Shown: positions 32,395 through 46,168, counted from the first letter of the stretch. The stretch is 64,000 nucleotides of DNA from Candidatus Heimdallarchaeota archaeon (GCA_020353515.1 CP070695.1:4721414-4785413); one strand, 5' to 3'. Notes: generated by a model not told the origin, from the letters alone. A program made the numbers and translations.

Positions 32395-35300
32395 AACCCT
32401 TTTCGATAATGTTAACATAACTAAAGGCCTTTATTTGGGTTATCAGATCCTTTACCAGTTTATCTTCCTTTAATAAAGCATAAAGTTTCTCGATAATCTC
32501 TAGGTTGTGTATTTCAAGAGTTTTCAGTTGATCTTTCTCCTCATTACTCAATTCCTCTCCAGAATTTTCTTTATAATGGAGCTTTTCCCACCTAGTAAAT
32601 TCTATGGAACTTATCATTCTCGATAGAAATTCTAGCAAAGAAACCCTTGATTGATGAATTGTATTTTCCCGAAATGATTCTTTGAGATAGAGTTCATATA
32701 CTAGTGAATCAACGATATGTGTCTCGAAATACGTAGTTATGTGCTGAAAACGTTTCTCTTTGGGTTTGATCGAGTGGAGGAAGAGAAGATACTCACATAA
32801 CTCAATAAATAAAGGTATAGCTTTGAAATCAGTAGGAATTGGAAAATAGCTTAATGGTTCTCCAAATAATTCAAGATGTTTCCCCTTCCTCTTTCCCATC
32901 CAAAAAAACCAAAAATATGCCAGTTTTGAGTTTAGGATTAACAGGAGGCTCTTTAACTTCCCTTTGTCGTTTTTATCATTTAAGATATAGTACACATCTT
33001 GAGCAGCGTACCAGTCAAACGAATTGTATGCAAATGTGTTCCTTAAGCTTCTTTGGGGAGTTATTATCTTTGGGGATGTGAAAATATCTTGAGTACGTGG
33101 CCTATTAATATATGGTGGATTATCCAATGATTCTTGTAATATTTCCCGAAATTTCTGTAGATGTCTCTTTATTTTGGGTAACATATCTAAGTTAACAGTG
33201 TTTCTGTTCAAGTAAAGAATACTCTTCTTTGTTTGGATGGCTGTATGATATCGGGATATGTCAGAATTCTTATAAAAATTCTTTAAATGGATTTTTTCTT
33301 CTTGAGAAAACGATTCAATTATATTTAGGTCACTAGGATTTTCTGAATTCAATATGAATACCCCTAATCCCATCCATTCATCGGATAACCTGTATTTTTT
33401 GATTTGTCGTCCTGTTATATTGTTGAGGCCTGTTACAATACCTTCCTTAACATAAAAACCACTTGTTTTCAACATTGATGAATTCTTAATAATCTGTTTA
33501 ATGATTAATCTAATTTGTTTAGGAAAAAAATGAAAATACCCATCCCAATCCTCAAAAATAAGCTCTTCTTGCTTCGTCATAAAAGTCCTTTGTGCATCTA
33601 ATTTTTTGATTAAATTCGTTACTTGAGGGTAAGTATTTTCAAAAAGGACACATTCGATATCATCATTCGTCTTTCTCGCTTTTTTGAATGTTATTAAGTT
33701 AATATGCACACCCTGAGCCGTGTCGAACACTTTATTCTCTTGAAAATTAATATATTTCATAATAAAGGTATCTGATAATATTCGAGTTCGTAATTTAGCA
33801 GCTCCTGTTGCTGTCACCCAATAACTGGAGGTTATAAATGATGAAAATGCATTTGGAAGCATTAAATCTAGACATCTCTGAAGAAAAAGATACCATAGAT
33901 CCATCTTTCCTTCATAGTATTCTGGTAACGCTTTAGCATATATTCTAAATAGCTCCTTATTCCCACTTTCACCTAAATAAGGTGGATTTGCAATTACAAT
34001 ATTAAAACCTCCCGCATTCAAGAATATTTCAGGGAATTCGTTTATCCAGTGGAACGTTTTTACTTTTTTAAGCTGAAACAAGTCTATTGGGTGATCCTCG
34101 GAGAATTTTTGATCTAGGATAGAATTTACTTGAGCTGTTATCCTAATCAGAAAATCTTGTAAAGATGAACTAAAATCCCCTGAGGAATGTATTATTCGAT
34201 TTATCTTTTCTTTTGTTCTTAAAACCTGATTTATACTTAATTCATCAATTTTATCCTGAAAAAAAATTAGATTGAGATTTTCTAGCTCTTTTTCTACCTG
34301 GCCTTCGATTTTTAAGACCTTATATGATTCTTTTATGTATTCTAGCAAATTAGTATCTATAGTCAAACTTTCTAAATTGGCTTTTGTATTGTTTTTCATT
34401 AAATATGATTCAAGTTTCAATTGTTTGGTTGATCTGTCCCTTTTGAACTGTATATATCCTAAAAGGGTATTCCCCTCCTTCAGATTCAGTTTAACTAAAG
34501 GGAGATCTTGTAGGAGATTTGAATGTTTGTTTAAATTCTTAATTAATAAAAGATATAATCTTGCCTTCGCAATTTTCAAGACATCAGGGTCTGTATCAAC
34601 ACCAAAAATGTTATTTGAAAGAATTGAGTGCATTACTGATAATTTAAAATCATCTTCGCTGGAAATCTCGAAAAAACGGTGTAAAGATGCATCATTCTCA
34701 TCCTTTAAAGTTTCAATTAGGATTTCTTTTTTAGAATCCCTCCAAATTCGCTTGTAAATCTCCATAAGTCTTTGAAGAACACTTTCTAATAGATGAGCAG
34801 AGCCAGCAGCAGGATCCAAGATTTTTAAATCTTGTAATTGAAATAGAAGGTATTTTACAATCCTTACATCATGAAATCTAATGATAGAGTTTATAGTTTT
34901 AAAGTTGGTATTAAATTTAGCATTCACTCTATCAAAGAGATACGAATCTATCGTAGTTTTGCAGATATACGAAGTAATTTTCTCTGGTGTGTAATAAGAT
35001 CCAAAGTTCTTTTTTTCTACCTGAGTAAAGAAATTCTCATAGATCCCACTAAGAACGAAACCATCAAAATTAACCAAATAATTTTCAAAAACATTTAACA
35101 AGGGGAAATCCCTTATTTTTCCCTTTGATGATAAATAATCTACTAATTGAAGACTAAATTTTTCATCATAGAAACACTCATCTGGGATAAATATTTCATT
35201 TAGATTATTCATGTAATCAAAAATGATAACTGGTTCAGGAATCACAATCTTTCCTAATGTTTTATTCTTAAAATACCTGTTTTTTTTGTTGAGATTAAGT

Positions 35301-35566
35301 TTCTTAAGGAAATAAATGATAAAATCAAAGTAATTGACAAACGAGGAATTCCCTGTGTTAATTTCTTTGAATTTTGTTAAAAAATAATTGCTGTCTCTAT
35401 TGAAAAACTTTCTTCTTTGGACAAACCACAAAAGCAGCATTTGTAGAAGAAAAGAATGAACAAATTCTTTCTTTATTGCTTCATCAAGAAATCCACTTGT
35501 ATTTTGGTGTAAATACTTCCAAATATTTCTGTAGAGAAGATAAAACTCTTCCATTGTAGATTTCAT
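32387..35566 (-). CDS. Large Eco57I/Type IIG-like N6-adenine DNA methyltransferase, no nuclease domain evident
   Basis: GSYYTP, ILDPAAGSA, IFGVD, GNTL, FHWINEFPEIF..GGFNIVIANPPY, TaqI_C-like LILNS. Confidence 0.9.
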   Translation of the reverse strand: MKSTMEEFYLLYRNIWKYLHQNTSGFLDEAIKKEFVHSFLLQMLLLWFVQRRKFFNRDSNYFLTKFKEINTGNSSFVNYFDFIIYFLKKLNLNKKNRYFKNKTLGKIVIPEPVIIFDYMNNLNEIFIPDECFYDEKFSLQLVDYLSSKGKIRDFPLLNVFENYLVNFDGFVLSGIYENFFTQVEKKNFGSYYTPEKITSYICKTTIDSYLFDRVNAKFNTNFKTINSIIRFHDVRIVKYLLFQLQDLKILDPAAGSAHLLESVLQRLMEIYKRIWRDSKKEILIETLKDENDASLHRFFEISSEDDFKLSVMHSILSNNIFGVDTDPDVLKIAKARLYLLLIKNLNKHSNLLQDLPLVKLNLKEGNTLLGYIQFKRDRSTKQLKLESYLMKNNTKANLESLTIDTNLLEYIKESYKVLKIEGQVEKELENLNLIFFQDKIDELSINQVLRTKEKINRIIHSSGDFSSSLQDFLIRITAQVNSILDQKFSEDHPIDLFQLKKVKTFHWINEFPEIFLNAGGFNIVIANPPYLGESGNKELFRIYAKALPEYYEGKMDLWYLFLQRCLDLMLPNAFSSFITSSYWVTATGAAKLRTRILSDTFIMKYINFQENKVFDTAQGVHINLITFKKARKTNDDIECVLFENTYPQVTNLIKKLDAQRTFMTKQEELIFEDWDGYFHFFPKQIRLIIKQIIKNSSMLKTSGFYVKEGIVTGLNNITGRQIKKYRLSDEWMGLGVFILNSENPSDLNIIESFSQEEKIHLKNFYKNSDISRYHTAIQTKKSILYLNRNTVNLDMLPKIKRHLQKFREILQESLDNPPYINRPRTQDIFTSPKIITPQRSLRNTFAYNSFDWYAAQDVYYILNDKNDKGKLKSLLLILNSKLAYFWFFWMGKRKGKHLELFGEPLSYFPIPTDFKAIPLFIELCEYLLFLHSIKPKEKRFQHITTYFETHIVDSLVYELYLKESFRENTIHQSRVSLLEFLSRMISSIEFTRWEKLHYKENSGEELSNEEKDQLKTLEIHNLEIIEKLYALLKEDKLVKDLITQIKAFSYVNIIEKGFS

Positions 35567-35805
35567 TACTTTAAACTCTTAGAACACCCAGAGAGGGTTA
35601 TATATCAAAGAAAAAGAGTGATTCACCCTTGCATGAAGAAAAAATATACATGACTTATGAGAGTATTCTCTATTTCTAACTTATCAAGATAACTAGAATT
35701 CAATAAACAGAAAGCTCACTAGAAGAAGAATTAATATCAAGCAAAAGATAGAAGGGGTGCCTGAAAAACACCCTCAGTGGAAAGATATTCTGTTACTGTT
35801 ATTCC

Positions 35806-36174
35806 TTATTTGAATAGAGCTGCCATTCGAGAAACTTCAGCATGGATGTTCAAGGGAGGGATCTGTACATCTCCTGGGGTCCAAGTCAAGAAATAATACC
35901 CATTTGGAGCACGTGCTACTACTATAATACCTGCACCTCCAACATTTCGAGCTACTAAATATCCAGTATCCCATTCATTCATAATAGTAGAAAAACGGGT
36001 TCCTGCGATAGTAACTCCTGGTTCTTTATTTTTCCAAGCATTCAATACACTAGCACCATTTACTTGCCAATCAGGTTGATTGGTCCAGTACGTCCCGCCA
36101 TTAGCATCAAGAATCGTTACAATTGACACATAACCATTTTGAATTAAAGAATTCATAGTATCTTGGTATGACAT
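35806..36174 (-). CDS. Profilin (Asgard eukaryotic signature protein)
   Basis: 122 aa; MSYQ..MNSL...G.V....ILD.NG..YW, GVTIAGTRF, LVARNVGGAGIIVV match the profilin pattern. Confidence 0.8.
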   Translation of the reverse strand: MSYQDTMNSLIQNGYVSIVTILDANGGTYWTNQPDWQVNGASVLNAWKNKEPGVTIAGTRFSTIMNEWDTGYLVARNVGGAGIIVVARAPNGYYFLTWTPGDVQIPPLNIHAEVSRMAALFK

Positions 36175-36402
36175 AGTTCCAACCTCGAATTAAAACGTCC
36201 TTACATAGTAATATTAAATACGAAAGAAGTAATTATGACCTTTGATATATATGTTTGCATAATTAAAAGTAATGGAAAAACACTTTGATATTGTCACTCT
36301 ACTTTACAATAACATAATCTAAGATAATCAAACGAGAATAAGATGTTAATGACAAATGTTATTTATTCATGAGATTTAAATTAAAATAAATTACAAAATG
36401 TT

Positions 36403-37680
36403 ATGTTAAAGAGTAATAATTCTGAAGTATCTAGAGGAGAGATTCCAGTTATGACAGTAATTGAGAAATGTGAGCTTATTTGGAGAGGGAAAAAAGATAG
36501 AAAAGGAAAACCTATTGACAAACCGCGTACATTAAAAGTTATCCAATCAATCCACACACCAAGGTTTGCGAAGACCTGGAGAAACAAACTCGCAACTGGA
36601 GATAACATATTTGTCATTAAATCTCTTCTAAAAGACTTTACAGGTAAAATTAATCTTGTATATATTGACCCACCATTTGGGTCAGGAACAACATACAAAC
36701 TGAGTCTTAAAGTTGGAAAAACCCAAGAGAAAACTTACAAGAAATCTTCAAATACGATAAAAAATGGTTTTAACGATATTTGGGGGGAAACTAGTTTAGA
36801 TAGTTATTTAACTTTTATGTTTGAAAGATTGGTTTTAATACATGAACTATTAGCTACTACTGGATCGATATTCGTTCATTTAGACTGGCATACTGTACAT
36901 TATGTCAAAGTGATCATGGATGAAATTTTTGGGCGTAAAAACTTCAGAGGAGATATAATTTGGCAACGAACCCCTGGGCACCATTTATCATCAACGATGG
37001 ATGTAATGACTGATGTTATCCTCTGGTACAGTAAAACCGATAATCTGTTGTACCATCAACAATACCAATACTTGACTGATGAGGAATTAAATGAGAAGTT
37101 TCCTTACACTGAGGCTGAAACAGGACGTCGTTTTACGCATGAAAAACTCGAACAGAGTGCGAATGCATACAGCATTGGGGAAAAAAGGATAATTGATGGC
37201 AGGGTGGTTACAACAAAGCTGGGCTGGCGATGGACACAAGAAACATTTGATAGAAGAATAAAAGAAAATCCTTATTTGATTTTTTGGACAAGTAAAGGAA
37301 GACCACGGTACAAACGCTATGCTGACGAATACTTAGGGAGAAAAATCGGTAACCTCTGGACTGATATTCAGTCCCTTGCGTCAAATGATAAAGAAAGGAT
37401 AGGTTATCCAACCCAAAAACCTGAAGCTTTACTCAAAAGAATAATAAAAATGACTACCAATGAAGGAGATCTTGTTGTTGATTTCTTTTGTGGATCTGGA
37501 ACCACTTTAACAGTAGCAGAAAAATTAAATAGACGATGGATGGGTGTTGATTCCTCAGAATATGCCATAGAACTAACGAGAAAACGATTATTAACACTTA
37601 AAGGATCCAAAGACTTGCTTGTTGAAGGATTGTGTTATGAAAAAGAAACCAATCCTTTCGAAATATTGACTCTTGATTAA
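36403..37680 (+). CDS. Beta-class site-specific DNA methyltransferase (Mod-like)
   Basis: LVYIDPPF, GSIFVHLD, YPTQKPEALL, DFFCGSGTT. Confidence 0.93.
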   Translation: MLKSNNSEVSRGEIPVMTVIEKCELIWRGKKDRKGKPIDKPRTLKVIQSIHTPRFAKTWRNKLATGDNIFVIKSLLKDFTGKINLVYIDPPFGSGTTYKLSLKVGKTQEKTYKKSSNTIKNGFNDIWGETSLDSYLTFMFERLVLIHELLATTGSIFVHLDWHTVHYVKVIMDEIFGRKNFRGDIIWQRTPGHHLSSTMDVMTDVILWYSKTDNLLYHQQYQYLTDEELNEKFPYTEAETGRRFTHEKLEQSANAYSIGEKRIIDGRVVTTKLGWRWTQETFDRRIKENPYLIFWTSKGRPRYKRYADEYLGRKIGNLWTDIQSLASNDKERIGYPTQKPEALLKRIIKMTTNEGDLVVDFFCGSGTTLTVAEKLNRRWMGVDSSEYAIELTRKRLLTLKGSKDLLVEGLCYEKETNPFEILTLD

Positions 37681-37720
37681 TAGAGATAATAAAATGCTTT
37701 ACTACTAATATTAAGTATTT

Positions 37721-38242
37721 TTACGTAATTGAAAACGGAGCCTCCCATGTATCTTGTATTCGTCCAACAAGATGAACTGGGAGGGACAAAGGGCCAAGGT
37801 GAAAATCCAACCTAATGTCAAAATCAAGAACTAGATATGCATCTACGACTGCAAGTAGAGGAATCCAAGAAGAAACATTTACATTAAGCACAATCTGCAC
37901 AAAATCATTCGGATTTATCGTCTGAATTTCTTCTGACACATTCACTAAAGTTGTATCAGGAAATAAACCAAAATTTTCAATACTCACTACAGATAACGAG
38001 ACATCAATATTACCATTCTTTAACGAAGCTAGAGAATGGTTACTAATATTAAAGGGAATTGTGATATCAATGAAACCACTATAATTTGTCCCATTTCGAG
38101 AAAGATTAGGATGGATTTCAGGTTGAGGAGGGAGTTCCACACGAACTTGTTGAGCAGAGAAAAAAGTAAGAAGTGCAATGGAGGTGATGAGTATAGTCAT
38201 TAAGACAGGTACAATTAGGGGCTTTTTAGAGCGATTGGTCAC
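37721..38242 (-). CDS. Membrane-anchored beta-rich hypothetical protein (LEA_2-like)
   Basis: N-terminal TM helix, then a beta-strand-rich region (ITIPFNISNHS). Confidence 0.6.
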   Translation of the reverse strand: MTNRSKKPLIVPVLMTILITSIALLTFFSAQQVRVELPPQPEIHPNLSRNGTNYSGFIDITIPFNISNHSLASLKNGNIDVSLSVVSIENFGLFPDTTLVNVSEEIQTINPNDFVQIVLNVNVSSWIPLLAVVDAYLVLDFDIRLDFHLGPLSLPVHLVGRIQDTWEAPFSIT

Positions 38243-38448
38243 TGTTTTGACATCCAGAGGTATGCTACAGCCAAGCTGGAAGTTAGAACCATGAATACCA
38301 GTAGTACCATCATTAAATTGCTTCCTACCTCGAAAATATATGTCCCACCCGTTCTACTTCCAAGAAATATTCCCAAAATTGTAGATCCTGTCATTATTGC
38401 AGTAATTTTACCAACATCTAACAGATTTTGATTATCCATATAGTTCAC
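38239..38448 (-). CDS. Small two-TM membrane protein
   Basis: Two hydrophobic segments; 4-nt overlap with the next gene. Confidence 0.55.
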   Translation of the reverse strand: MNYMDNQNLLDVGKITAIMTGSTILGIFLGSRTGGTYIFEVGSNLMMVLLVFMVLTSSLAVAYLWMSKQ

Positions 38449-38547
38449 GCTAGAAATCTATCTGATTATCATTTGATAACAAAAGGTATATAAAGGTTGC
38501 TGAATAATTACTTCATGAAAACTCATCAAGAGATTAATTAGAAATCA

Positions 38548-38787
38548 ATGGTAATAATCATGTCTCGAACTCCAAACTCAGATAAATCTACTCTGGAAGA
38601 CGAAGCTTCCATTAAAAGGAAGGAAAAGGCTAAAACAATTCTATTACGTGTTTCAGACCCTCTTTATGATTCTATTAAAAAAGCTATTGACTTAGGAATA
38701 GCTGACAATGCTTCAGAATTCGTTCGAAGATGTGTTGTTAATCAACTCTTAGATTTAAGACTTCTAGGTATCGAAGAAAGAGATTAA
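38548..38787 (+). CDS. Ribbon-helix-helix (CopG-like) DNA-binding protein
   Basis: KTILLRVSDPLYDSIKKAIDLGIADNASEFVRRCV. Confidence 0.75.
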   Translation: MVIIMSRTPNSDKSTLEDEASIKRKEKAKTILLRVSDPLYDSIKKAIDLGIADNASEFVRRCVVNQLLDLRLLGIEERD

Positions 38788-38788
38788 T

Positions 38789-39574
38789 CTAAATTTTTCT
38801 GGCAATCCCAAAAAAGACTGGCATAAATGAAAATCGGTCAGCAGGGCTGTATGTTTCAAGAATATACTTTAGTTTTGCTAATTTAGCACTATTTTCTCCA
38901 AGAAAATGAGCCAATTTATCGAATTCGGCCTTGTATAAATCCATCACAATATCTGGAGAGAGTACAGATGATTGAAGACCCACTTCTACTTGGAGATCGG
39001 CTTTATGAAAAAGTGAACGCAATTTCCGCCCAATATAGGGATCATGAGCAGATAACGATTCTAACAGGAGCTCTTCCCATTGTTCACTAGCAGGATAATC
39101 AAGACGTCCTCCATAATCAGGCTCAGCTAAACACGCTATCCATCCCCCTATGCGAGTTACTCGTCTCATTTCCTTTAATACGGCAAGTGGCTCCTTTACC
39201 CACATTAGGAAATAATTACACAGAGTAATATCGAAATTATTATCTGAAAATGGTAATAATTCTCCATTTCCGCAGATACTATTAGGACTAAGGGATTCTA
39301 CTTGAGAAAATTTTAATGCAAACAAATTCCAATCAAGGCCCACAAGTCGTGCTCTCGGATTTATCGTCTGGATTTCCCTCAGTATTGCACCTGTTCCTGA
39401 ACCCACTTCAAGGATGGTTTTTGCATGGAATAATTCCATTTTGCGATATAATCGTTTTCTGGTTGATACGGTCCACTCCATTTGATCCTCATACATTTCA
39501 TTGAAATAATGAGCATCTTCTTCTGAATTTATCCGATCTTTCACGATTAATCGTTGGCCTGGCTCTCGGGACAT
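38789..39574 (-). CDS. Class I SAM-dependent methyltransferase
   Basis: ILEVGSGTG, GLD, LPFSDNNFD, EMRRVTRIGGWI, EPDYGG. Confidence 0.9.
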   Translation of the reverse strand: MSREPGQRLIVKDRINSEEDAHYFNEMYEDQMEWTVSTRKRLYRKMELFHAKTILEVGSGTGAILREIQTINPRARLVGLDWNLFALKFSQVESLSPNSICGNGELLPFSDNNFDITLCNYFLMWVKEPLAVLKEMRRVTRIGGWIACLAEPDYGGRLDYPASEQWEELLLESLSAHDPYIGRKLRSLFHKADLQVEVGLQSSVLSPDIVMDLYKAEFDKLAHFLGENSAKLAKLKYILETYSPADRFSFMPVFFGIARKI

Positions 39575-40872
39575 ATGTATTCCTCACGATAGAAACTTAG
39601 AGGACAGCCACCACCACAAATATCAAGTTGGTTACAATCCTTACACTCTTCGGGGACGTTCGTATGAGTTCGCAGTTCTTGTGATAATGGATTATTCCAT
39701 ATTTTCTCCCAGCTATCATTCAAAATATGCCCTAGTCCCTTGTAGTAACTCTGACAGGGAATCACAGTTCCATTGGGTTCAATGGCCATTGCTAATTGTG
39801 AGGCAGAACATCTCTTTACTCCAAGTCCTAGGTTATTCGGATCAAGTTCACAGTACCGAGTAGGAGTGTACCAAATAAAGTTCATGTTACATTCATCAGC
39901 TACATCCTGAATTGTTTCAAGAATGGGAATCAATTCACTCTCAGTGAAAGCTATCTGTGACATATTTTTTCCTTTTCCTGCATATATAATTGAATTACAG
40001 GCGAATTGTTCAACACCAAGGGTAGAAAGAAACTCAATTGTCTCTGCTATTTGAGGGCTATTCAATCGAGTTAACGTGGTGTTTGTAAGAGTATAAATTG
40101 GTGTATCAATTGCATTTTTTATTCCTTCAACTGTTTCAGCCCATGCTTGGTCATTTCCTACCATTTGATTATGAATCCTTTCATCTACACTTTCAAATGT
40201 AATCTGAATATGATCTAATCCGTTAATGACCAATTTATCAACATATTCTGCTTCCTTTAGATTTCTTCCATTTGTGATAAGTCCAGTAACTATACCAATA
40301 TTCTCTGCATGGTCTATTAAATCAGGTAGATCAGGACGTAATGTGGGTTCTCCTCCTGTAAAAGTCACATGAGGAATAGAAACCTCCCAAAGTCGATCTA
40401 AGATAGACTTCCAAGTGTTTGTATCCAATTCACTTGCATTAAGAGAGTCTGGTTGGTTATAACAATGTTCACATTTGTTGTTACAGCGGTAGGTGAGAGC
40501 TAGATCCATTCGTAACGGAGCACTTAGTTGTAAATCCGTTAAATTCGATTCTTCCACCTGTAAGGAATGTATTGGGCAAATATCGTCTGTTGTTGATAAT
40601 GTATGAATCATCTCTTTTAAAGACTGTAGATCAGTATTAGCTTGCTGTTCACTGACACGATACAGACTCCTTAGCTCTTTAACAATTTCTAAATCAGGTC
40701 TCCCTTTTAGGATTCTTTCTACAAAAAAGGTTGCAGTAGGATTGAGATTTAGTATTCTCGACGCGTTGATAATTAAGAGACCACTATCTCCCTGGCGTCG
40801 AAGGTGTAAGCGGATATCTCCATCTTCTCCTTCTCTTAAGTGTACTAATTCAGCATTTTCTGTCCGTTTCAT
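39547..40872 (-). CDS. Radical SAM/SPASM enzyme with N-terminal PqqD/RRE domain
   Basis: RRE-like LNPTATFF...EIVKELRSLYRVSEQQANTDL; CNNKCEHC; TGGEP; SPASM CSAS...G.VIPC...CKDC....ICGGGC; ATG 40872 overlaps the upstream stop (TAATG). Confidence 0.93.
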   Translation of the reverse strand: MKRTENAELVHLREGEDGDIRLHLRRQGDSGLLIINASRILNLNPTATFFVERILKGRPDLEIVKELRSLYRVSEQQANTDLQSLKEMIHTLSTTDDICPIHSLQVEESNLTDLQLSAPLRMDLALTYRCNNKCEHCYNQPDSLNASELDTNTWKSILDRLWEVSIPHVTFTGGEPTLRPDLPDLIDHAENIGIVTGLITNGRNLKEAEYVDKLVINGLDHIQITFESVDERIHNQMVGNDQAWAETVEGIKNAIDTPIYTLTNTTLTRLNSPQIAETIEFLSTLGVEQFACNSIIYAGKGKNMSQIAFTESELIPILETIQDVADECNMNFIWYTPTRYCELDPNNLGLGVKRCSASQLAMAIEPNGTVIPCQSYYKGLGHILNDSWEKIWNNPLSQELRTHTNVPEECKDCNQLDICGGGCPLSFYREEYICPESQAND

Positions 40873-42377
40873 TAACGTCCACCTCCAGCACAGGCACAGG
40901 CACATCCTGCACAAGCACAGGCACAACCTCCACCGCCTCGTGAACGTCCACTGCTTCCTCGAGGAATGGGATGGCTGATCTTTGTCACACGACTCGTGAA
41001 AGATCTACCACGAGGTACCCAATGCCAATGGTGATAACCATAGTGATAATACCAAGGATAGTAACCATAGTACTCGTCGTAATACTCCTGTTCTGTGATT
41101 TGCACTTCCAAATCGGGTAAAAACTCCTCATTGAGAATAGCCCAATGCCAAGCTTCTGCAGGTACATTTCGAGGATCTGATTCTGACTTGATTGTAGCTA
41201 TCGAGTCTTGGATTAATCTCTCATAATATTTTACAGTTTTTTCATAATTATATCCCCGAATCCGTCGTTGGGTAAATTTAACCAAGCTGCTTACAGCTTT
41301 CACTAGATCACTCTCATCAATACTAAGATCAGGACGTATTGATTCTAACACTTGCCGTTCATACGTTCGAAGACGCTTCTTTGATCCTTTTACAGGTTTT
41401 AAGGCGGGATTTTCAGCTGAAAGCTGTTGCAATAGCCCTTTTTGAATTAATGTGAGAATAATCATCGAAATTGTGACATTTGCAGGTTTCTCAAGGACAA
41501 TGGATACAACCTCCCTACGGAGATCGGTTCTTGGGCCAGCAGTGGGAACAGAGACAAATGGCGGGACGTAATCCATCAAGCGACGTCGTTTCCTTGTATA
41601 AGAAACAATTGCAATCACAATGACAATTAATATAACTCCAATAACCCCCATAATGATCAACATTTCTTCTTCGGTTAGGGGGATACTTGTATGCCAAGTT
41701 ACCCCCTCTTTGGGAAAAGAAACACCATATTTATATTGTTTTGAGGGTGAAGCTTTTGGTTCGTTCCATTCGAATACTTTTCGCCCATTATGTAAAAAAT
41801 ACTGTTGATCTGGTTCTATACGGTGCCACTTGGTATATGCATTTTCGTCAACTGTTGTGGGAAAAATAATTCGAGTGGTTAGGTTAGTGGTACCTGTAGT
41901 ATAAGCAGAACCCCACCAAGTGTTTCCAAACTCCGTAGAAGCCATGTGCTCTTCCTCAGTATCTTCAAATATCATATAAGGCTGATTTCCCCACACATGT
42001 AAAGTTCCTGTGTCCCTGATGGTATATCTACCCAAATGAATCTCCACACCAATGTCTATCGCCTCAGAAACACGAATATCAGAGATTGAATGACCATCCA
42101 TATCTGCCGAGACACTACCAAGTTTGTAATGCTTGTTAGGAAATCCAATATCAACAATATCGATAGGATCGCCACCAGTCTCAACCACGAACGTAATCCA
42201 ATATTCAATATCGGCTGATCCATCTACATTGATATTTATTTCTACAATTTCCTCTGGAACAGAAAAATAATAATCAGTAATTGCTTCAGAATTCCCTTTT
42301 ACTCCACTTAATGGAAAGAACGATAGTAAGAGAATAATAAAAATAATGTGATAATGAGATAAGTTTCTATTCTTCAT
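40872..42377 (-). CDS. DUF2207-like membrane protein with C-terminal CACACAGCACACAGGGR motif (candidate rSAM substrate)
   Basis: Signal peptide, beta-rich ectodomain (ININVDGSADIEYWITF), single TM, cytoplasmic domain, Tyr/His/Trp-rich patch, Gly/Ser linker, six-Cys tail. Confidence 0.85.
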   Translation of the reverse strand: MKNRNLSHYHIIFIILLLSFFPLSGVKGNSEAITDYYFSVPEEIVEININVDGSADIEYWITFVVETGGDPIDIVDIGFPNKHYKLGSVSADMDGHSISDIRVSEAIDIGVEIHLGRYTIRDTGTLHVWGNQPYMIFEDTEEEHMASTEFGNTWWGSAYTTGTTNLTTRIIFPTTVDENAYTKWHRIEPDQQYFLHNGRKVFEWNEPKASPSKQYKYGVSFPKEGVTWHTSIPLTEEEMLIIMGVIGVILIVIVIAIVSYTRKRRRLMDYVPPFVSVPTAGPRTDLRREVVSIVLEKPANVTISMIILTLIQKGLLQQLSAENPALKPVKGSKKRLRTYERQVLESIRPDLSIDESDLVKAVSSLVKFTQRRIRGYNYEKTVKYYERLIQDSIATIKSESDPRNVPAEAWHWAILNEEFLPDLEVQITEQEYYDEYYGYYPWYYHYGYHHWHWVPRGRSFTSRVTKISHPIPRGSSGRSRGGGGCACACAGCACACAGGGR

Positions 42378-42486
42378 TAGGCCAACCTCAGTTATTGTTT
42401 ATCTGTGTAAAATTTTTACTGATATTATGAATGTTTTCTTCCCAGACCTTTTTCAAGCACTATTATCGAAGTCCCATGTGATAGGA

Positions 42487-43365
42487 TCATATATCAATAT
42501 TGAAGAAAGATCTTACGAATAATCCAATAATAAAACTTAGTGCTGCTATTCCCAAACTGATTCCGACAATTTCAGTAAACCTTTTTTGGAATGAAAGATC
42601 TTTTGCAACTGAAATATAGAATGTAAAGACAAAAACAATCAAGATGGCATTTATAAGAGTGATGGTCAAGCAAACAAGTGGGGATTGATTACTGAGGATT
42701 AAATAAGGTAGAATCAGAAAAATTACTGTGAAGATGTACGCAAATCCTGTGTAAATCGCTGCTTTCAATGGATTTTTAGATGATTTTTCTTCAGATTTTG
42801 TTGCGAGATATTCTGAAGCTGCCATGGATAATGAGGCGGCAATTCCTGTAATAAGGCCCGCTAGAGCAATTAATTGAGTGTTCTGAAACGCTAATGTTAA
42901 TCCTGCTAAGGCACCTGTGAGCTCGACCAGAGCATCGTTCAAACCGAGGACAACTGATCCTATATAATCTAGTAATTCCTCATCTATGAGGCTTATAAGC
43001 TGTTTTTCATGAGTTTCTTCGTCATCAATAACAGTTTGAGCCTTAGGGATGACTTTTCTGATTGTGGAATAAAAGATTTGAGCCTGTCCTTCTCCAAGTT
43101 CCATTAGCCGAATTCCAAACGTTAGACCAAATATTCTAGAAATAAGATAATAAAACCACTTTTTTAATTTACTTGGTTTCACTTCACGTTGGGTATACTG
43201 TTTCCAAAATGTATAATGCTCCAGCTCATCCTCAGCAATTTGATTGAGGATGTTTTGATTGTGAGAATCTTTTGTTGACTTTGATAGCTTTTTATAAATG
43301 TAATATTCTGTAATTTCATTTTTTTGAGCATTTAATACAAGTTTTTTCATGTTTTGATCTAACAT
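42487..43365 (-). CDS. Rubrerythrin-like + VIT1/CCC1 iron transporter family protein
   Basis: E..E...Y, IAEDELEH, DEETHE di-iron motifs; VLGLNDALVE, SMAASEYL. Confidence 0.9.
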   Translation of the reverse strand: MLDQNMKKLVLNAQKNEITEYYIYKKLSKSTKDSHNQNILNQIAEDELEHYTFWKQYTQREVKPSKLKKWFYYLISRIFGLTFGIRLMELGEGQAQIFYSTIRKVIPKAQTVIDDEETHEKQLISLIDEELLDYIGSVVLGLNDALVELTGALAGLTLAFQNTQLIALAGLITGIAASLSMAASEYLATKSEEKSSKNPLKAAIYTGFAYIFTVIFLILPYLILSNQSPLVCLTITLINAILIVFVFTFYISVAKDLSFQKRFTEIVGISLGIAALSFIIGLFVRSFFNIDI

Positions 43366-43589
43366 TCATCGTTCCAACTCTTTTAATTGCTTTTAGAATA
43401 GCTGTTTTTGATCTTAATGTTGCTGTTCATTGAAAATAGCTTAGCTGGACTTAATAACCAAATGTCATCTATTTTAAACACTGATATATTTTATAATCTC
43501 TCAATGTTATATTACTTAATTACATTTTTAAGCGAGACTTAATCCGAAAAAAGTCACCGATTTCTCCATATTAATTGATGTGATCATAT

Positions 43590-44210
43590 ATGGCTACATA
43601 TACAGATCTAGGCCAGTTTATTATGAAATTGTTTGATGAACTTATTGTAGATTCTAAAAGTCAATTAAATGAAGCCCAACAATCCTTTTGTGAGGAAATG
43701 CCTCGCAGGGTTTCTGCACGATCCAGTATAACGGTCGCCCAAGCAGAAAGATTTGTTAGAGAAATGGCTGATCGATTATTACGAATCAATCAGGATTTAT
43801 TAAATCAATATGCCATCTCAATAGCAAAAAAAGCCCGTAGTGAGAGTAAAAAGACCTCCAAATCTCTATCAAGTGATTATGAAGAACTCAAACAACAATT
43901 AACAAAAAAAGAGCAAGAAATAGAAGGCCTCCAAGCGCAATCGAAATCCTTGGAACAACGAAATAAGGTTCTAGAACAGGAGAAAGAAGAGACCCTACGT
44001 CAGTGTTCTGAAATGAATACTACTCTTATTGAACTAGAACAAAGTCTTGCAAGCGCTAATGAAGAGTTTACACGTCAAATGAATGACCTAAACGCGGAGT
44101 GGGAAGCAAAATTTCAAAAAAACCAAGAAGAATGGGATAGTTACGTCAAATTAAAACTTGCTGAACGAGAAATTACAACAACGACAGATGATACTACCGA
44201 AAGTGAATAA
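43590..44210 (+). CDS. Coiled-coil hypothetical protein
   Basis: E/Q/K-rich heptad region of about 110 aa. Confidence 0.75.
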   Translation: MATYTDLGQFIMKLFDELIVDSKSQLNEAQQSFCEEMPRRVSARSSITVAQAERFVREMADRLLRINQDLLNQYAISIAKKARSESKKTSKSLSSDYEELKQQLTKKEQEIEGLQAQSKSLEQRNKVLEQEKEETLRQCSEMNTTLIELEQSLASANEEFTRQMNDLNAEWEAKFQKNQEEWDSYVKLKLAEREITTTTDDTTESE

Positions 44211-44216
44211 GCAGAA

Positions 44217-44603
44217 TTACTTTGTTTTTGCTGAATAAACTTTGGCTATGGCTTCCATTCCCTCACAAAAAATCTTTATAAAATCTCCTTCACGTATCTG
44301 CTTAGTAGCGGTTTTTGTTCCTAAGACAGCTGGAATCTGTACAATTCCAGAAACTTCCGATCCCCGAGAAACCCTGGTTCCATGGTCAGTCACTACTCCT
44401 GCAACATCATTAACTACGTCAGACCAAGACCAATCAATCCTTGGACATACTAAAATACGAGGTATTTCATCTTGAAATGACGAAATCAGAGCACGAGCAG
44501 CTTCTGGGGTTTGTGAAATAAATGCTTTACCTTCTGTTTGTGATATTTGGTTAGCTGCCCAACCTTTTAAAATCAATCTTTCTTTTAAGTCACTCTTTGA
44601 CAC
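44217..44603 (-). CDS. Stand-alone PEP-utilising swivel (phosphohistidine) domain lacking the catalytic His
   Basis: ILVC..ID..W, AGVVTDHGTRVSR, IPAVLGT..AT..IREGD. Confidence 0.75.
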   Translation of the reverse strand: MSKSDLKERLILKGWAANQISQTEGKAFISQTPEAARALISSFQDEIPRILVCPRIDWSWSDVVNDVAGVVTDHGTRVSRGSEVSGIVQIPAVLGTKTATKQIREGDFIKIFCEGMEAIAKVYSAKTK

Positions 44604-44737
44604 AATTCACACCAAGAATCTTACTTTAGGGCAATTAAGTGAATTGAGTTATACTTTTTGAATTCATGAAATTATTTCGTCTTCAACAAAAAATTTTAGA
44701 ATATCTACAAGTAACCATAAATATAGGATGAACCTTT

Positions 44738-45466
44738 ATGGCTCAAAAGAATTTTCCTAAGTCTCGAGGATTCACCGTATTTTTAATCATGAGTTTCTTT
44801 CTGGCTTCCTTTCCAGGTACTATTCATCCTTGTCAAACAATTGACGTTACTCCTAATACACGAATAGAAATACACGATGTAGTTCTTGTAAATTATACAT
44901 TATGGATTGAGGAGAATATTGTAGATGATCAGCAAGGACCGATTTATGTAGAAGATCCAGATGTGATAGAAAAAGTTGGTGTGCCTGAAAGTATAATTGA
45001 AGAATTCCCTAATGTGTTTGCACCACCTAATTTGGGCTTTGTTGAGGGAATTCTAGGAATGAGGGCAGGAGAGGAAACAAATCATAGAATAAACTGGATT
45101 ACTGGAAAGGCTTTTAATGATCCCAATGATACCTATTATGGTGAAAATCTCTTCTATCAGATCCGCATTAAAAAAATCTTACTTGACGCAAGCCAACCCA
45201 CTCCAACATTAATGGATATCCCTTTTTTTGTTCCCCTCGTTGTTTTACTAGGATTGCTTATTATCTTTCTTATAATCCTTCGAATCCAGCGCTATAGCCG
45301 CACCCATAACCTCTTTGGTCTAAAAAAGAAGTGTTATTATTGTGGAAAAATAGCTAATGTGATGTGTGGGAATCCTGGATGCACTACTCCTTATTGTAAA
45401 CCGTGTTTTCTTGAAAATAATGGATGTGATTTGTGTCACTCAAATACTATGATTCCCTTAAAGTGA
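44738..45466 (+). CDS. FKBP-like ectodomain + TM + cytoplasmic Cys8 zinc finger
   Basis: Signal peptide; DVVLVNYTL, GFVEGILGMRAGE, GENLFYQIRI (FKBP-like); TM; CYYC..C.NPGC..PYCKPC...GCDLC. Confidence 0.7.
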   Translation: MAQKNFPKSRGFTVFLIMSFFLASFPGTIHPCQTIDVTPNTRIEIHDVVLVNYTLWIEENIVDDQQGPIYVEDPDVIEKVGVPESIIEEFPNVFAPPNLGFVEGILGMRAGEETNHRINWITGKAFNDPNDTYYGENLFYQIRIKKILLDASQPTPTLMDIPFFVPLVVLLGLLIIFLIILRIQRYSRTHNLFGLKKKCYYCGKIANVMCGNPGCTTPYCKPCFLENNGCDLCHSNTMIPLK

Positions 45467-46168
45467 AAGGAATATTTCCAGTAATGCAATGATTATTGTC
45501 GCAAGCGGGGGATTAAATAGATTATCAGCAAGATACCAAGGTAAATCCTCAAAAAAGTCAAGTAATCCCCATACAATTGTAGGAATGAGTGGTAAAACGA
45601 GGATAATCCATGTCTGGTAAGACGAGGATAAATTCATCCATACAAAGAGGAGAAAACAAAATCCAATCACATAATTAGTCAGTAATCCAGCAATAAATCC
45701 TTCGACCGTCTTCTCTTTCGTAAGAGGGAGTCTAACACGACCTATTCCTTTCCCAACTAATGCTGCAGCAGAATCACCCATAACTGTGGCGATTAATACA
45801 AGCTCTACTACTTCCATTTCATAAAAAAAGTTCACCCCAAGTAACAAAACTAACCAAACTGCAGCTGTGAAAATATAATTTGCAGGTCGTTCTTTCTCAG
45901 TTGCACGCGTAAAATGATTGATCCAAGTGTTTGGATTGAATTTTATCCTATATACTTCCAATGGGACAAAAAAACACAAAAAACCAAGAAGAGATATCTG
46001 TATTATAAAAAGAGATATTTCTGGTGAAAAATTCATAGCAGGCATTATCAAGTGATAGGCTAAAGGAATGGCCCAAACTGATAAATGAATTGATTTACGA
46101 CCTAATTCATTTAAGAACTTGAATTCTTCAGTACTCTGGTTTAGTGTTTCATCCATAAATAACGCCAT
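45458..46168 (-). CDS. CTP-dependent dolichol/phytol/diacylglycerol kinase family membrane protein
   Basis: ELGRKSIH, GDSAAALVGK..G, KTVEGF, DNL. Confidence 0.85.
   Translation of the reverse strand: MALFMDETLNQSTEEFKFLNELGRKSIHLSVWAIPLAYHLIMPAMNFSPEISLFIIQISLLGFLCFFVPLEVYRIKFNPNTWINHFTRATEKERPANYIFTAAVWLVLLLGVNFFYEMEVVELVLIATVMGDSAAALVGKGIGRVRLPLTKEKTVEGFIAGLLTNYVIGFCFLLFVWMNLSSSYQTWIILVLPLIPTIVWGLLDFFEDLPWYLADNLFNPPLATIIIALLEIFLSL

Follow-up and report, generated by a model that had tools for sequence, protein, structure and literature searches.

Three adjacent genes in a 64,000-nucleotide stretch of DNA from Candidatus Heimdallarchaeota archaeon (the whole stretch is called the window here) raise the question of whether a RiPP-type radical SAM enzyme acts on the Cys-rich tail of a full-size membrane protein. 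The genes occupy positions 38789-42377 of the minus strand, in the order tail protein, radical SAM enzyme, methyltransferase:

40872..42377, minus strand: tail-protein gene (501-aa type I membrane protein, DUF2207-like by predicted fold); open reading frame, stop codon at 40872-40874
39547..40872, minus strand: RRE-radical SAM-SPASM gene, 441 aa counted from the ATG; open reading frame and domain matches
38789..39574, minus strand: class I SAM methyltransferase gene, 261 aa; open reading frame and domain matches

The tail gene and the radical SAM gene are translationally coupled, the TAA of the former and the ATG of the latter having one base in common (TAATG at 40874-40870), and the end of the radical SAM gene overlaps the beginning of the methyltransferase gene by 28 nt (39547-39574). 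The initial annotation had described three tightly coupled minus-strand genes of Asgard origin; the coupling is borne out, and the origin fits the nearest relatives, Promethearchaeota/Hodarchaeales MAGs (75-84% identity). A mechanical ORF listing puts the radical SAM start upstream, at TTG 40926, only because the Cys-Ala codons of the tail are open in the other frame. Beyond the cassette, flanking genes are syntenic among close relatives only, and in these a VIT1/ferritin-like iron transporter gene adjoins the cassette.

The AlphaFold model of the tail protein (pLDDT 86) begins with a hydrophobic, signal-peptide-like helix at residues 6-20, after which the following parts can be distinguished:

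41712..42266, minus strand: predicted extracytoplasmic beta-sandwich, residues 38-222 (AlphaFold model, pLDDT 96-98)
41577..41672, minus strand: predicted single transmembrane helix, residues 236-267 (AlphaFold helix), followed by RKRRR and the inferred cytoplasmic side
41007..41576, minus strand: predicted cytoplasmic winged-helix and helical domain, residues 268-457 (domain model, pLDDT 82)
40962..41003, minus strand: leader-like motif SFTSRVTKISHPIP, residues 459-472 (column counts in 135 sequences)
40926..40961, minus strand: Gly/Ser/Arg-rich flexible linker, residues 473-484 (family alignment, drop in pLDDT)
40875..40925, minus strand: 17-residue core CACACAGCACACAGGGR, residues 485-501, the proposed substrate (sequence; invariant)

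The model agrees with the plan first proposed for this protein, namely signal peptide, ectodomain and transmembrane segment with the tail on a flexible linker; the cytoplasmic location of the tail is an inference, drawn from the positive-inside orientation that the RKRRR segment suggests. In Foldseek the beta-sandwich matches ribophorin I chains as well as the N-terminal domains of M1 aminopeptidases. Among solved structures the cytoplasmic domain is matched best by GOLPH3 (3kn1_A, Z 7.1 over 155 aligned residues), followed by Vps74 (Z 5.4), after which the score falls to Z 3.3, and ESM Atlas clusters annotated as DUF2207 give TM 0.55-0.71 over 189-213 residues. As far as these models go, the tail protein is DUF2207-like by fold; it has more than 4,400 homologs.

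The C-terminal end of the protein, GSSGRSRGGGGCACACAGCACACAGGGR, carries the features that bear on its possible role as a substrate. The core contains only Cys, Ala, Gly and Arg, arranged as (Cys-Ala)3-Gly-(Cys-Ala)3-Gly-Gly-Gly-Arg, and the Ala, Gly and terminal Arg columns equal the Cys columns in invariance. It is encoded by a TGYGCN repeat, and the number of Cys-Ala repeats differs between subfamilies, with 6 to 9 closely spaced Cys. Across the family the linker varies in both length and composition; pLDDT is 59 for residues 471-480 and 41 for residues 481-490, and residues 480-501 are disordered in the model. The leader-like motif has the family consensus F-T-x-x-V-T-x-x-T-N-P-x-P, with T/S and N/H variants. 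Its conservation is moderate, 60-85% per column, the counts among the 135 sequences being F 88, T 80, V 79, T 84, T/S 117, N/H 100, P 110 and P 97. The motif is modelled as a helix and not as a strand; that it is the docking site of the RRE is our inference.

The second gene had been assigned an RRE, a radical SAM core and a SPASM domain, and profile matches confirm all three. The Radical_SAM domain covers residues 127-283 (PF04055, E 1e-23) and the SPASM domain residues 356-415 (PF13186, E 2e-11); the other features are:

40615..40767, minus strand: PqqD-like RiPP recognition element, residues 36-86 (PF05402, 25.5 bits, cut-off 23.4)
40462..40485, minus strand: CxxxCxxC for the radical SAM [4Fe-4S] cluster, C130, C134 and C137 (46/46 orthologs)
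39571..39852, minus strand: SPASM region with eight conserved Cys (conservation counts, PF13186)

The seven-Cys SPASM signature is met (C355-x12-G-x4-C373, C410-x2-C413-x5-C419-x3-C423 and C434), and together with C341 these eight conserved Cys imply two auxiliary Fe-S clusters. The best HMM score is that of PqqE (140.6 bits, cut-off 381.35), with NirJ2 and AhbD next; MftC scores 93 bits (cut-off 265), and the thioether synthases SkfB, AlbA and StsB score 88, 77.9 and 76.3 bits (cut-offs 300, 850 and 625). No NCBIfam cut-off is reached, every family among the 25 best of 84 matches being far below its own. Since the enzyme is nearest to PqqE, NirJ2 and AhbD and reaches no cut-off, the reaction type remains open. 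Among solved structures its best relative by sequence is PqqE (6c8v), and the radical SAM core also resembles NirJ, AhbD and the GDGT/MAS synthase 7tol.

The third protein was rightly called a class I methyltransferase, as the match to such models indicates (Methyltransf_11, E 2e-16). Its best solved sequence match, restricted to the Rossmann core, is LahSB (6uak, E 2.6e-9), which methylates the C-terminal carboxyl group of a RiPP. Of 50 loci, 36 have a methyltransferase within +/-7 kb, and we regard it as a frequent yet dispensable accessory whose target can only be inferred.

The RiPP-type reading would have been refuted, according to the initial annotation, if tail-bearing homologs usually occurred without the radical SAM gene or if a separate short precursor were conserved nearby; neither is the case. 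A radical SAM ortholog stands directly 3' of the tail gene at 58 of the 69 genome loci with enough flank. The remaining 11 comprise one partial downstream match, one upstream case and nine genomes in which the two genes are unlinked, each with one clear ortholog elsewhere (460-499 bits, against at most 110 for the next radical SAM protein). All 30 tail-bearing genomes in a 151-genome phylum sample have the enzyme, and it lies downstream at 44/45 metagenome loci recovered by the DNA pattern of the tail alone. The co-occurrence of tail and enzyme is thus near-obligate, and it holds over more than 10 phyla, both domains, two gene orders and unlinked cases. Within the genus of this archaeon, four of eight genomes have both tail and enzyme and four have neither. 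In one archaeal family, f16, 19 genomes have the enzyme, and in 9 of these no tail gene was seen (completeness 72-89%); in two relatives, G069 and G105, contigs end within or just past tail genes, which stand in tandem in G069. Assembly loss is therefore plausible, though not proven.

As for a short precursor, positions 35000-46000 hold no Cys-rich small ORF except shadow frames within genes, and the scan by tail DNA pattern returned 85 tail ORFs, every complete one a full-size family member and none a short stand-alone ORF. The family also shows a second operon form and a fourth, zinc-ribbon gene, the latter absent in this clade. In one Anaerolineales genome a 1,139-aa kinase/STAND/TPR protein beside the radical SAM gene carries only the last ~140 residues of the family, with the tail, and a canonical copy lies elsewhere, unlinked; the fusion is represented by one protein cluster on two contigs and may be a recent or non-functional rearrangement.

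A search of 1.84 billion representatives with a tail-less HMM found 1,110 matches, and the tail-bearing family comprises at least 1,110 representative clusters from both domains. Among the best 150 matches, 121 end in the canonical tail, 8 in a variant and 21 in none, the last being nearly all fragments. When genes were picked irrespective of the tail, by an ectodomain peptide pattern from the tail-less profile, every complete one ended in CACACAGGGR (78/78). The identical 17-residue tail at 75 loci from many phyla is written in 74 distinct DNA versions, with an identity of 0.44 at third codon positions and every synonymous codon in use; synonymous sites are therefore randomised under an invariant peptide, which indicates selection on the peptide. 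Judged from sequence, the tail is invariant far beyond chance.

The three-gene unit and the invariant tail together point to an enzymatic modification, so far undescribed, whose target is an entire protein and not a short peptide. We consider it likely, with a probability of roughly 70%, that the locus is a conserved maturation cassette in which the RRE-radical SAM-SPASM enzyme modifies the Cys-Ala tail of the membrane protein. The cytoplasmic C-terminus of the first gene product, with its motif, linker and core, would resemble a RiPP precursor fused to a protein. The enzyme, with three inferred Fe-S clusters, would dock on this C-terminal module, and 5'-deoxyadenosyl radical chemistry would act upon the Cys-Ala core. 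Sactionine- or ranthionine-type crosslinks formed from Cys would be the likeliest outcome; C-C crosslinking, epimerisation and oxidation of Cys also remain possible. The modified tail would stay attached to the membrane protein, and the methyltransferase would add a methyl group, for which the carboxylate of the invariant C-terminal Arg and a Cys sulfur are possible sites. The role of the tail as substrate of the enzyme is well supported but inferred; genomic linkage alone cannot separate a substrate from a partner, and no biochemical or MS evidence exists for any member. The protein-level RiPP reading of the initial annotation is supported; within it, the modification of the tail, its thioether type and the target of the methyltransferase remain inference.

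A partner role is the basis of the alternative that survives best, in which the Cys-Ala tail is an unmodified metal or Fe-S site, the membrane protein serves the enzyme as anchor, redox/electron relay or sensor, and the true substrate is elsewhere (a peptide, lipid or cofactor). A flexible cytoplasmic tail with six to nine Cys close together would bind metals; the radical SAM core is similar to tetrapyrrole- and lipid-modifying enzymes (NirJ, AhbD; 7tol), and the adjoining iron transporter gene would suit such a role, but that neighbour is conserved among near relatives only. The authors of the work on the Cys-rich protein CrpA also suspect a metal-related role for it (PMC13692751). Against this reading, the enzyme has a PqqD-type RRE, a peptide-binding module, and no gene for another substrate is conserved alongside the two. 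In simple metal-binding CxC motifs an Ala invariance such as that seen here is unusual, and simple metal sites rarely need Ala, Gly and a terminal Arg as constant as the Cys. We judge an unmodified metal or Fe-S binding tail, the third refuting case named in the initial annotation, unlikely, and computation cannot exclude it.

The tail could also be a precursor, first modified and later cleaved from the protein to yield a small sulfur-rich peptide or redox cofactor, with the membrane protein as carrier only. Such a fate has models in PqqA and MftA, in which C-terminal residues of a ribosomal peptide are transformed on the way to PQQ and mycofactocin; PqqE gives both the best HMM match and the best solved relative of the enzyme, MftC matches as well, and a Gly-rich linker stands before the core. 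The scores are nevertheless far below the PqqE and MftC cut-offs, no peptidase, transporter or other cofactor-pathway gene is conserved with the cassette, and a mere leader role would hardly account for a conserved, folded carrier of 480 residues that has an ectodomain, which makes this route quite improbable. Operon hitch-hiking of a low-complexity, repeat-derived tail, for which slippage of the TGYGCN repeat and the varying number of CA repeats might speak, is effectively refuted by the 78/78 tails, the unlinked orthologs, the 44/45 metagenome loci, the spread over more than 10 phyla, both domains and two gene orders, and the codon test.

If enzymatic modification of the tail is accepted, the mature form is a matter for tentative suggestion only. 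The tail may become a protein-tethered structure not seen before, perhaps a series of thioether bridges from Cys to Ala arranged as a ladder (lanthionine- or sactionine-like, but formed without dehydration) or a sulfur-rich motif with D/L alternation, and serve as a metal-binding or redox prosthetic group on the cytoplasmic face of a membrane receptor that resembles ribophorin or DUF2207; we hold this possible but rather doubtful. The unit is common to this Asgard archaeon and many anaerobic bacteria, and the modification, if true, would represent a new class of PTM on an integral membrane protein, kept unchanged across Asgard archaea and more than 10 bacterial phyla. A literature search found no paper on this cassette. 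New here are the genome-level co-occurrence counts, the codon test, the second operon form, the fourth, zinc-ribbon gene with its absence in this clade, and the fold assignments.

Among known systems, the tail protein shares with DUF2207 proteins (PF09972/PF20990) a signal peptide, ectodomain, transmembrane segment, cytoplasmic domain and Gly-rich C-terminal region. The window protein itself matches neither PF09972 nor PF20990 even at E <= 1, and 4/17 family members match PF20990 weakly (best E 5e-4); to our knowledge, a Cys-Ala tail with a radical SAM partner has not been described for DUF2207. Ribophorin I chains are the top Foldseek matches (E 4e-9, TM 0.29), a Pfam search gives no Ribophorin_I (PF04597) match to the window protein, and a separate, true Ribophorin_I gene is present in the genome at C1:2762707-2763429; on the modelled structure, the resemblance is one of plan only.

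The sactipeptide and ranthipeptide maturases (AlbA, SkfB 6efn, CteB/SCIFF, StsB) have in common with our enzyme an N-terminal RRE, a radical SAM core, SPASM and a Cys-rich core in the substrate, and thioether formation as they perform it is the natural first guess for the cassette. They differ in acting on short peptides, typically <100 aa, that carry an N-terminal leader and are secreted, whereas here the protein has 501 aa and no short precursor is present near the genes or among the 85 pattern matches; the window enzyme scores 76-88 bits against sactipeptide maturase cut-offs of 300-850, and the tail core lacks the residues that usually serve as acceptors (Asp, Asn, Thr, Phe and others). 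PqqE/PqqD/PqqA and MftC/MftB/MftA likewise use an RRE-guided SPASM enzyme that acts near the C-terminus of a ribosomal product. Their target residues (Glu/Tyr and Val-Tyr) are absent here, the substrate would be a membrane protein, and no PqqB/C/F or MftD/E/F companion genes occur in the window neighbourhood or at other loci. QhpD is a SPASM radical SAM enzyme that forms Cys thioether crosslinks in a subunit retained in the mature protein, the gamma subunit of quinohemoprotein amine dehydrogenase. This subunit, QhpC, is small and periplasmic, with Cys-Asp/Glu links and a quinone cofactor, and shows no membrane protein, Cys-Ala repeat or relation to DUF2207. The Crp paper cites QhpD/QhpC as a case of a protein with RiPP-like modification (PMC13692751).

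The only experimentally shown close analogue found is CrpC/CrpA of Methanococcus voltae (2026), in which CrpC, an RRE-radical SAM-SPASM enzyme, crosslinks the 28.8-kDa protein CrpA by thioethers in its Cys-rich C-terminal part (PMC13692751). Its publication gives RiPP chemistry at the protein level a precedent in archaea. That paper mentions no membrane proteins, Asgard archaea or DUF2207, and the three methyltransferase uses shown there concern the MTR complex of methanogenesis (PMC13692751). CrpC belongs to TIGR04463, which is absent from the 25 best of the 84 NCBIfam matches of our enzyme and thus scores <69 bits. CrpA is soluble and has ten repeats of 17 residues with the motif C-x-x-Q/D as well as a leader-like region of 47 residues at its N-terminus, whereas here an integral membrane protein bears a single invariant (Cys-Ala)n-GGGR tail with the leader-like motif just upstream of the core. 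In both systems, which are archaeal, the enzyme gene stands beside that of a full-size Cys-rich protein and the product stays (or, in the present case, would stay) a protein. With the substrate role inferred, the cassette meets the RiPP-type feature of a ribosomal substrate with recognition part and core, and it meets directly the CrpC-type feature of a full-size Cys-rich protein encoded beside the enzyme.

On the minus strand of the window, a gene for a membrane protein with a Cys-Ala tail is packed against genes for a radical SAM enzyme and a methyltransferase:

42377-40872, minus strand: tail gene, 501 residues, ending GSSGRSRGGGGCACACAGCACACAGGGR (ORF listing)
40872-39547, minus strand: radical SAM gene, 441 residues, ATG start
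39574-38789, minus strand: methyltransferase gene, 261 residues

The initial annotation had described three packed genes on this strand, with their overlaps and domains, and the description proved accurate when set against the ORFs, the sequence and Pfam. The TAA of the tail gene and the ATG of the radical SAM gene have one base in common (TAATG, 40874-40870), and the radical SAM gene overlaps the methyltransferase gene by 28 nt. The mechanically defined radical SAM ORF opens earlier, at a TTG, but its extra stretch (40873-40926, minus strand; reading MCLCLCRMCLCLCWRWTL) is only an alternative frame of the upstream Cys-Ala codons, the real start being the ATG at 40872. Pfam places PqqD at residues 36-86, Radical_SAM at 127-283 and SPASM at 356-415 of the radical SAM protein, and assigns class I methyltransferase models to the third protein. 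The tail protein has zero Pfam matches, and its sole match in NCBIfam, LPXTG, is sub-threshold and spurious. The radical SAM/tail cassette is a confirmed observation, and its interpretation as a core peptide fused to a membrane protein and modified by the enzyme is supported.

Among the genes flanking it in the window, synteny is found solely in close relatives; only the cassette is conserved. One of these neighbours, a VIT1-family transporter with an N-terminal ferritin/rubrerythrin-like region (42487-43365, minus strand), lies on the same strand 109 nt upstream of the tail gene and was ruled out as a cassette member, since its synteny extends only to close relatives (loci L006, L007, L009, L010 and L011). 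On the other side, 36403-37680 (plus strand) holds a 425-residue ORF with the IDPPFGSG motif typical of N4/N6 DNA methyltransferases, which is kept in L007, L009 and L010.

A word-indexed search returned more than 4,400 homologs of the tail protein, with the tail at the end in 117 of the 120 best and the other three truncated. Because the words of the tail itself bias such a search, it was repeated without the tail. The tail-less profile, run against 1.84 billion representatives, matched 1,110 proteins; 121 of the 150 best end canonically, 8 carry a close variant, and the 21 without a tail are almost all fragments that stop mid-domain. An ectodomain peptide pattern, scanned in one genome per species, found 416 relatives, of which 80 loci were kept; all 78 complete genes in them end in CACACAGGGR. 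Their hosts include Asgard archaea, Zixibacteria, Coatesbacteria, Chloroflexota, Acidobacteriota, Thermodesulfobacteriota, Planctomycetota, Actinomycetota, WOR-3 and Edwardsbacteria, and the family as a whole comprises over a thousand representative clusters from anaerobic bacteria and archaea. The last 17 residues are identical in 75 loci, encoded by 74 different DNA versions in which all synonymous codons are in use and third-position identity is 44%. An identical peptide in randomised codons argues that the constraint acts on the peptide and not on a DNA or RNA repeat. The Ala, Gly and terminal Arg are as strictly constrained as the Cys, and the 17-residue core is unchanged while the rest of the protein has drifted apart, to about 30% identity; a core so invariant implies that the chemical or structural requirement is very exact.

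The association of the tail protein with the enzyme was counted in the 69 genome loci that have at least 1.5 kb downstream of the tail gene, with an ortholog cut-off of at least 300 bits. The radical SAM ortholog lies directly downstream on the same strand in 58 of them, with a median distance of 85 nt between the stop codon and the first codon in the alignment. The remaining 11 consist of one partial downstream match, one ortholog upstream and nine loci with none. When the nine unlinked genomes were searched whole, each proved to contain a single clear ortholog at another site (460-499 bits, 48-52% identity), the next radical SAM protein reaching at most 110 bits, and six of these nine unlinked enzymes still stand beside the methyltransferase. 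A metagenome scan that used the tail DNA pattern alone gave 85 tail ORFs; for the main subfamily, the enzyme is downstream in 44 of the 45 tail loci with enough flank. Within the window's phylum, 30 of 151 sampled genomes have the tail protein and all 30 have the enzyme, at no less than 43% identity, and in the window's genus both genes are present in four of eight genomes and neither in the other four. The initial annotation would have taken it as refutation if tail-bearing homologs usually stood without the radical SAM enzyme, or if a separate short precursor were conserved nearby; the counts in the loci, the unlinked genomes and the phylum answer the former. As to the latter, no stand-alone short precursor was found near the window genes or among the 85 tail-pattern matches, all complete ones being full-size family members, which argues that none exists.

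The reverse case, an enzyme without a detected tail gene, was met in nine genomes, all of one family (f16) and 72-89% complete. In two relatives examined, one of them genome G069 with its tandem tail genes, the contig ends inside the tail genes or shortly beyond them; loss in assembly is a plausible but unproven explanation. A distant paralog of the enzyme (31-34% identity) occurs in 21 genomes without the tail protein. This paralogous RRE-type radical SAM protein, encoded at G084:C1:757477-758682 (locus L233) and in 20 other genomes (Asgard families f10 and f9), scores 230-260 bits, and no Cys-rich neighbour is evident in the one locus inspected, L233. The association between tail protein and enzyme is as firm as comparative genomics allows, and we consider it likely, with a probability of roughly 0.7, that the tail is the substrate of the radical SAM enzyme.

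Members of 586-724 residues form a second subfamily, whose tail is CACA(CA)G-CACACACAGGGR and whose genes often stand in tandem pairs (L081, L122, L137, L142, L162 and L173). There the operon opens with a radical SAM ortholog (~41% identity), followed by a second radical SAM/SPASM paralog (24-28% identity), continues with one or more tail genes and closes with the methyltransferase. A further gene, of about 130 residues, immediately precedes the tail gene in 63 of the 80 genome loci, and examples are:

L232:420-800: zinc-ribbon gene of ~130 residues
L234:6421-6804, minus strand: zinc-ribbon gene of ~130 residues
L001:5603-6007: zinc-ribbon gene of ~130 residues

Its product has two TM helices, a CxxC...CxxC zinc ribbon and an invariant Lys-Trp end (alignment A7), and is probably a membrane partner. 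Hodarchaeales-type loci and the window both lack the gene, and a 13-sequence profile did not find it in the window's genome. When tail gene and enzyme are unlinked, it accompanies the tail gene and not the enzyme, which leaves the tail as the best candidate for the substrate.

The C-terminal module itself consists of a moderately conserved motif, F-T-x-x-V-T-x-x-T/S-N/H-P-x-P (in the window, SFTSRVTKISHPIP), a Gly/Ser-rich linker of variable length and the core. As far as sequence can tell, a putative recognition motif, a flexible linker and an invariant core make up the layout of a RiPP precursor on the end of a folded protein; that the F-T-x-x-V-T motif is the docking site of the RRE is an inference. 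Complex prediction paired the enzyme (46-row alignment) with the C-terminal 72 residues of the tail protein; its score, 0.14 against a mark of 0.32, was counted neither way. In an Anaerolineales locus (L106:990-4409), the last ~140 residues of a 1,139-residue protein with protein kinase, AAA_16 (STAND) and TPR regions are the family's C-terminal module with its tail, and about 420 nt separate this gene from the radical SAM ortholog downstream; the same genome has a canonical tail-family member that is unlinked to the radical SAM gene. The fusion, known from one protein cluster on two contigs, fits a modular view and gives it weak support. The protein P0269 (STAND/TPR) was ruled out as a second case, as it matches the TPR part only and has no tail, and the search found no second fusion of the module to a foreign scaffold.

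An AlphaFold model of the tail protein, built from a 135-sequence alignment, is confident (mean pLDDT 86). It has a hydrophobic helix at the N-terminus, a beta-sandwich domain at 38-222 (pLDDT 96-98), a single TM helix at 236-267 followed by RKRRR, a cytoplasmic domain composed of a winged helix and a helical part, and disorder at residues 480-501. For this plan of ectodomain, TM helix and cytoplasmic domain (41007-42266), the top solved Foldseek matches are the ribophorin I chains of human oligosaccharyltransferase (E 4e-9, ~440 columns, TM 0.29), with N-terminal domains of M1 aminopeptidases also among the best. A separate true Ribophorin_I gene (PF04597) elsewhere in the same genome, at C1:2762707-2763429, rules the tail protein out as an Asgard ortholog of OST1/ribophorin I, so that the likeness is one of resemblance and not of orthology. 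Folded by itself (pLDDT 82), the cytoplasmic domain (41007-41576) has as best solved matches GOLPH3 (Z 7.1 over 155 residues) and Vps74 (Z 5.4), the next having Z 3.3. It superposes on DUF2207-labelled ESM Atlas clusters with TM 0.55-0.71, and PF20990 matches weakly in 4 of 17 relatives of the tail protein; we therefore call the protein DUF2207-like by fold, and not a Pfam member. A distant relationship between DUF2207 and ribophorin may be worth testing. Some family members, such as P0270 and P0284, are extended outside the cell at the N-terminus by PF06439 (DUF1080 / 3-keto-disaccharide hydrolase-like) and Laminin_G_3 domains, a domain content that hints at extracellular carbohydrate binding.

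In 46 orthologs of the enzyme, C130, C134 and C137 are conserved together with eight Cys of the SPASM region and with C99, in the linker after the RRE, and the presence of three Fe-S clusters is inferred from sequence alone. Among solved structures, its closest relatives by sequence are PqqE, SkfB and SuiB. The enzyme falls in no named NCBIfam family, its best score being 140.6 bits for PqqE against a cut-off of 381; PqqE, NirJ2 and AhbD rank above the thioether synthases, all far below their cut-offs. The type of reaction is thus not fixed at this level. Thioether formation is the leading candidate by analogy, because the substrates of CteB, AlbA and CrpC are Cys-rich; the reaction itself is not established. 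The possible acceptors in the core are only Ala, Gly and Arg, which would be unusual for a thioether, and epimerisation, C-C coupling and Cys oxidation are possible alternatives. Since the core consists only of Cys, Ala, Gly and Arg, without the usual thioether acceptors, the reaction may itself be new.

A methyltransferase gene lies within 7 kb on either side in 36 of 50 loci (directly after the enzyme in 24, upstream of the tail gene in 6 and further downstream in 6), which makes it a frequent accessory and not a core part. The solved structure that it matches best by sequence is LahSB, the C-terminal carboxylate methylator of lanthipeptides; with 40 bits, and confined to the Rossmann core, this match makes methylation of the invariant C-terminal Arg merely a lead.

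To our knowledge, RRE-guided radical SAM/SPASM enzymes are known almost solely for making small secreted peptides. We found no paper on the tail protein/radical SAM system, subscription journals being outside the search. The closest described case, likewise archaeal and at the protein level, is that of Methanococcus voltae, where the RRE-radical SAM-SPASM enzyme CrpC forms ranthionine-type crosslinks on CrpA, a soluble Cys-rich protein of 28.8 kDa (PMC13692751). With its publication, protein-level RiPP chemistry in archaea is no longer unprecedented. However, CrpC/CrpA differs in having its own substrate, motif and enzyme family (TIGR04463), and the paper makes no mention of membrane proteins, Asgard archaea or DUF2207 (PMC13692751). 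The cassette would give DUF2207-like membrane proteins a first functional handle, and the likeness of their fold to ribophorin I on the outer side of the membrane and to GOLPH3/Vps74 on the inner side makes them interesting in an Asgard archaeon. Compared with the one earlier protein-level case, from 2026, the cassette ties an enzyme of the peptide-maturase type to an integral membrane protein of 500 residues.
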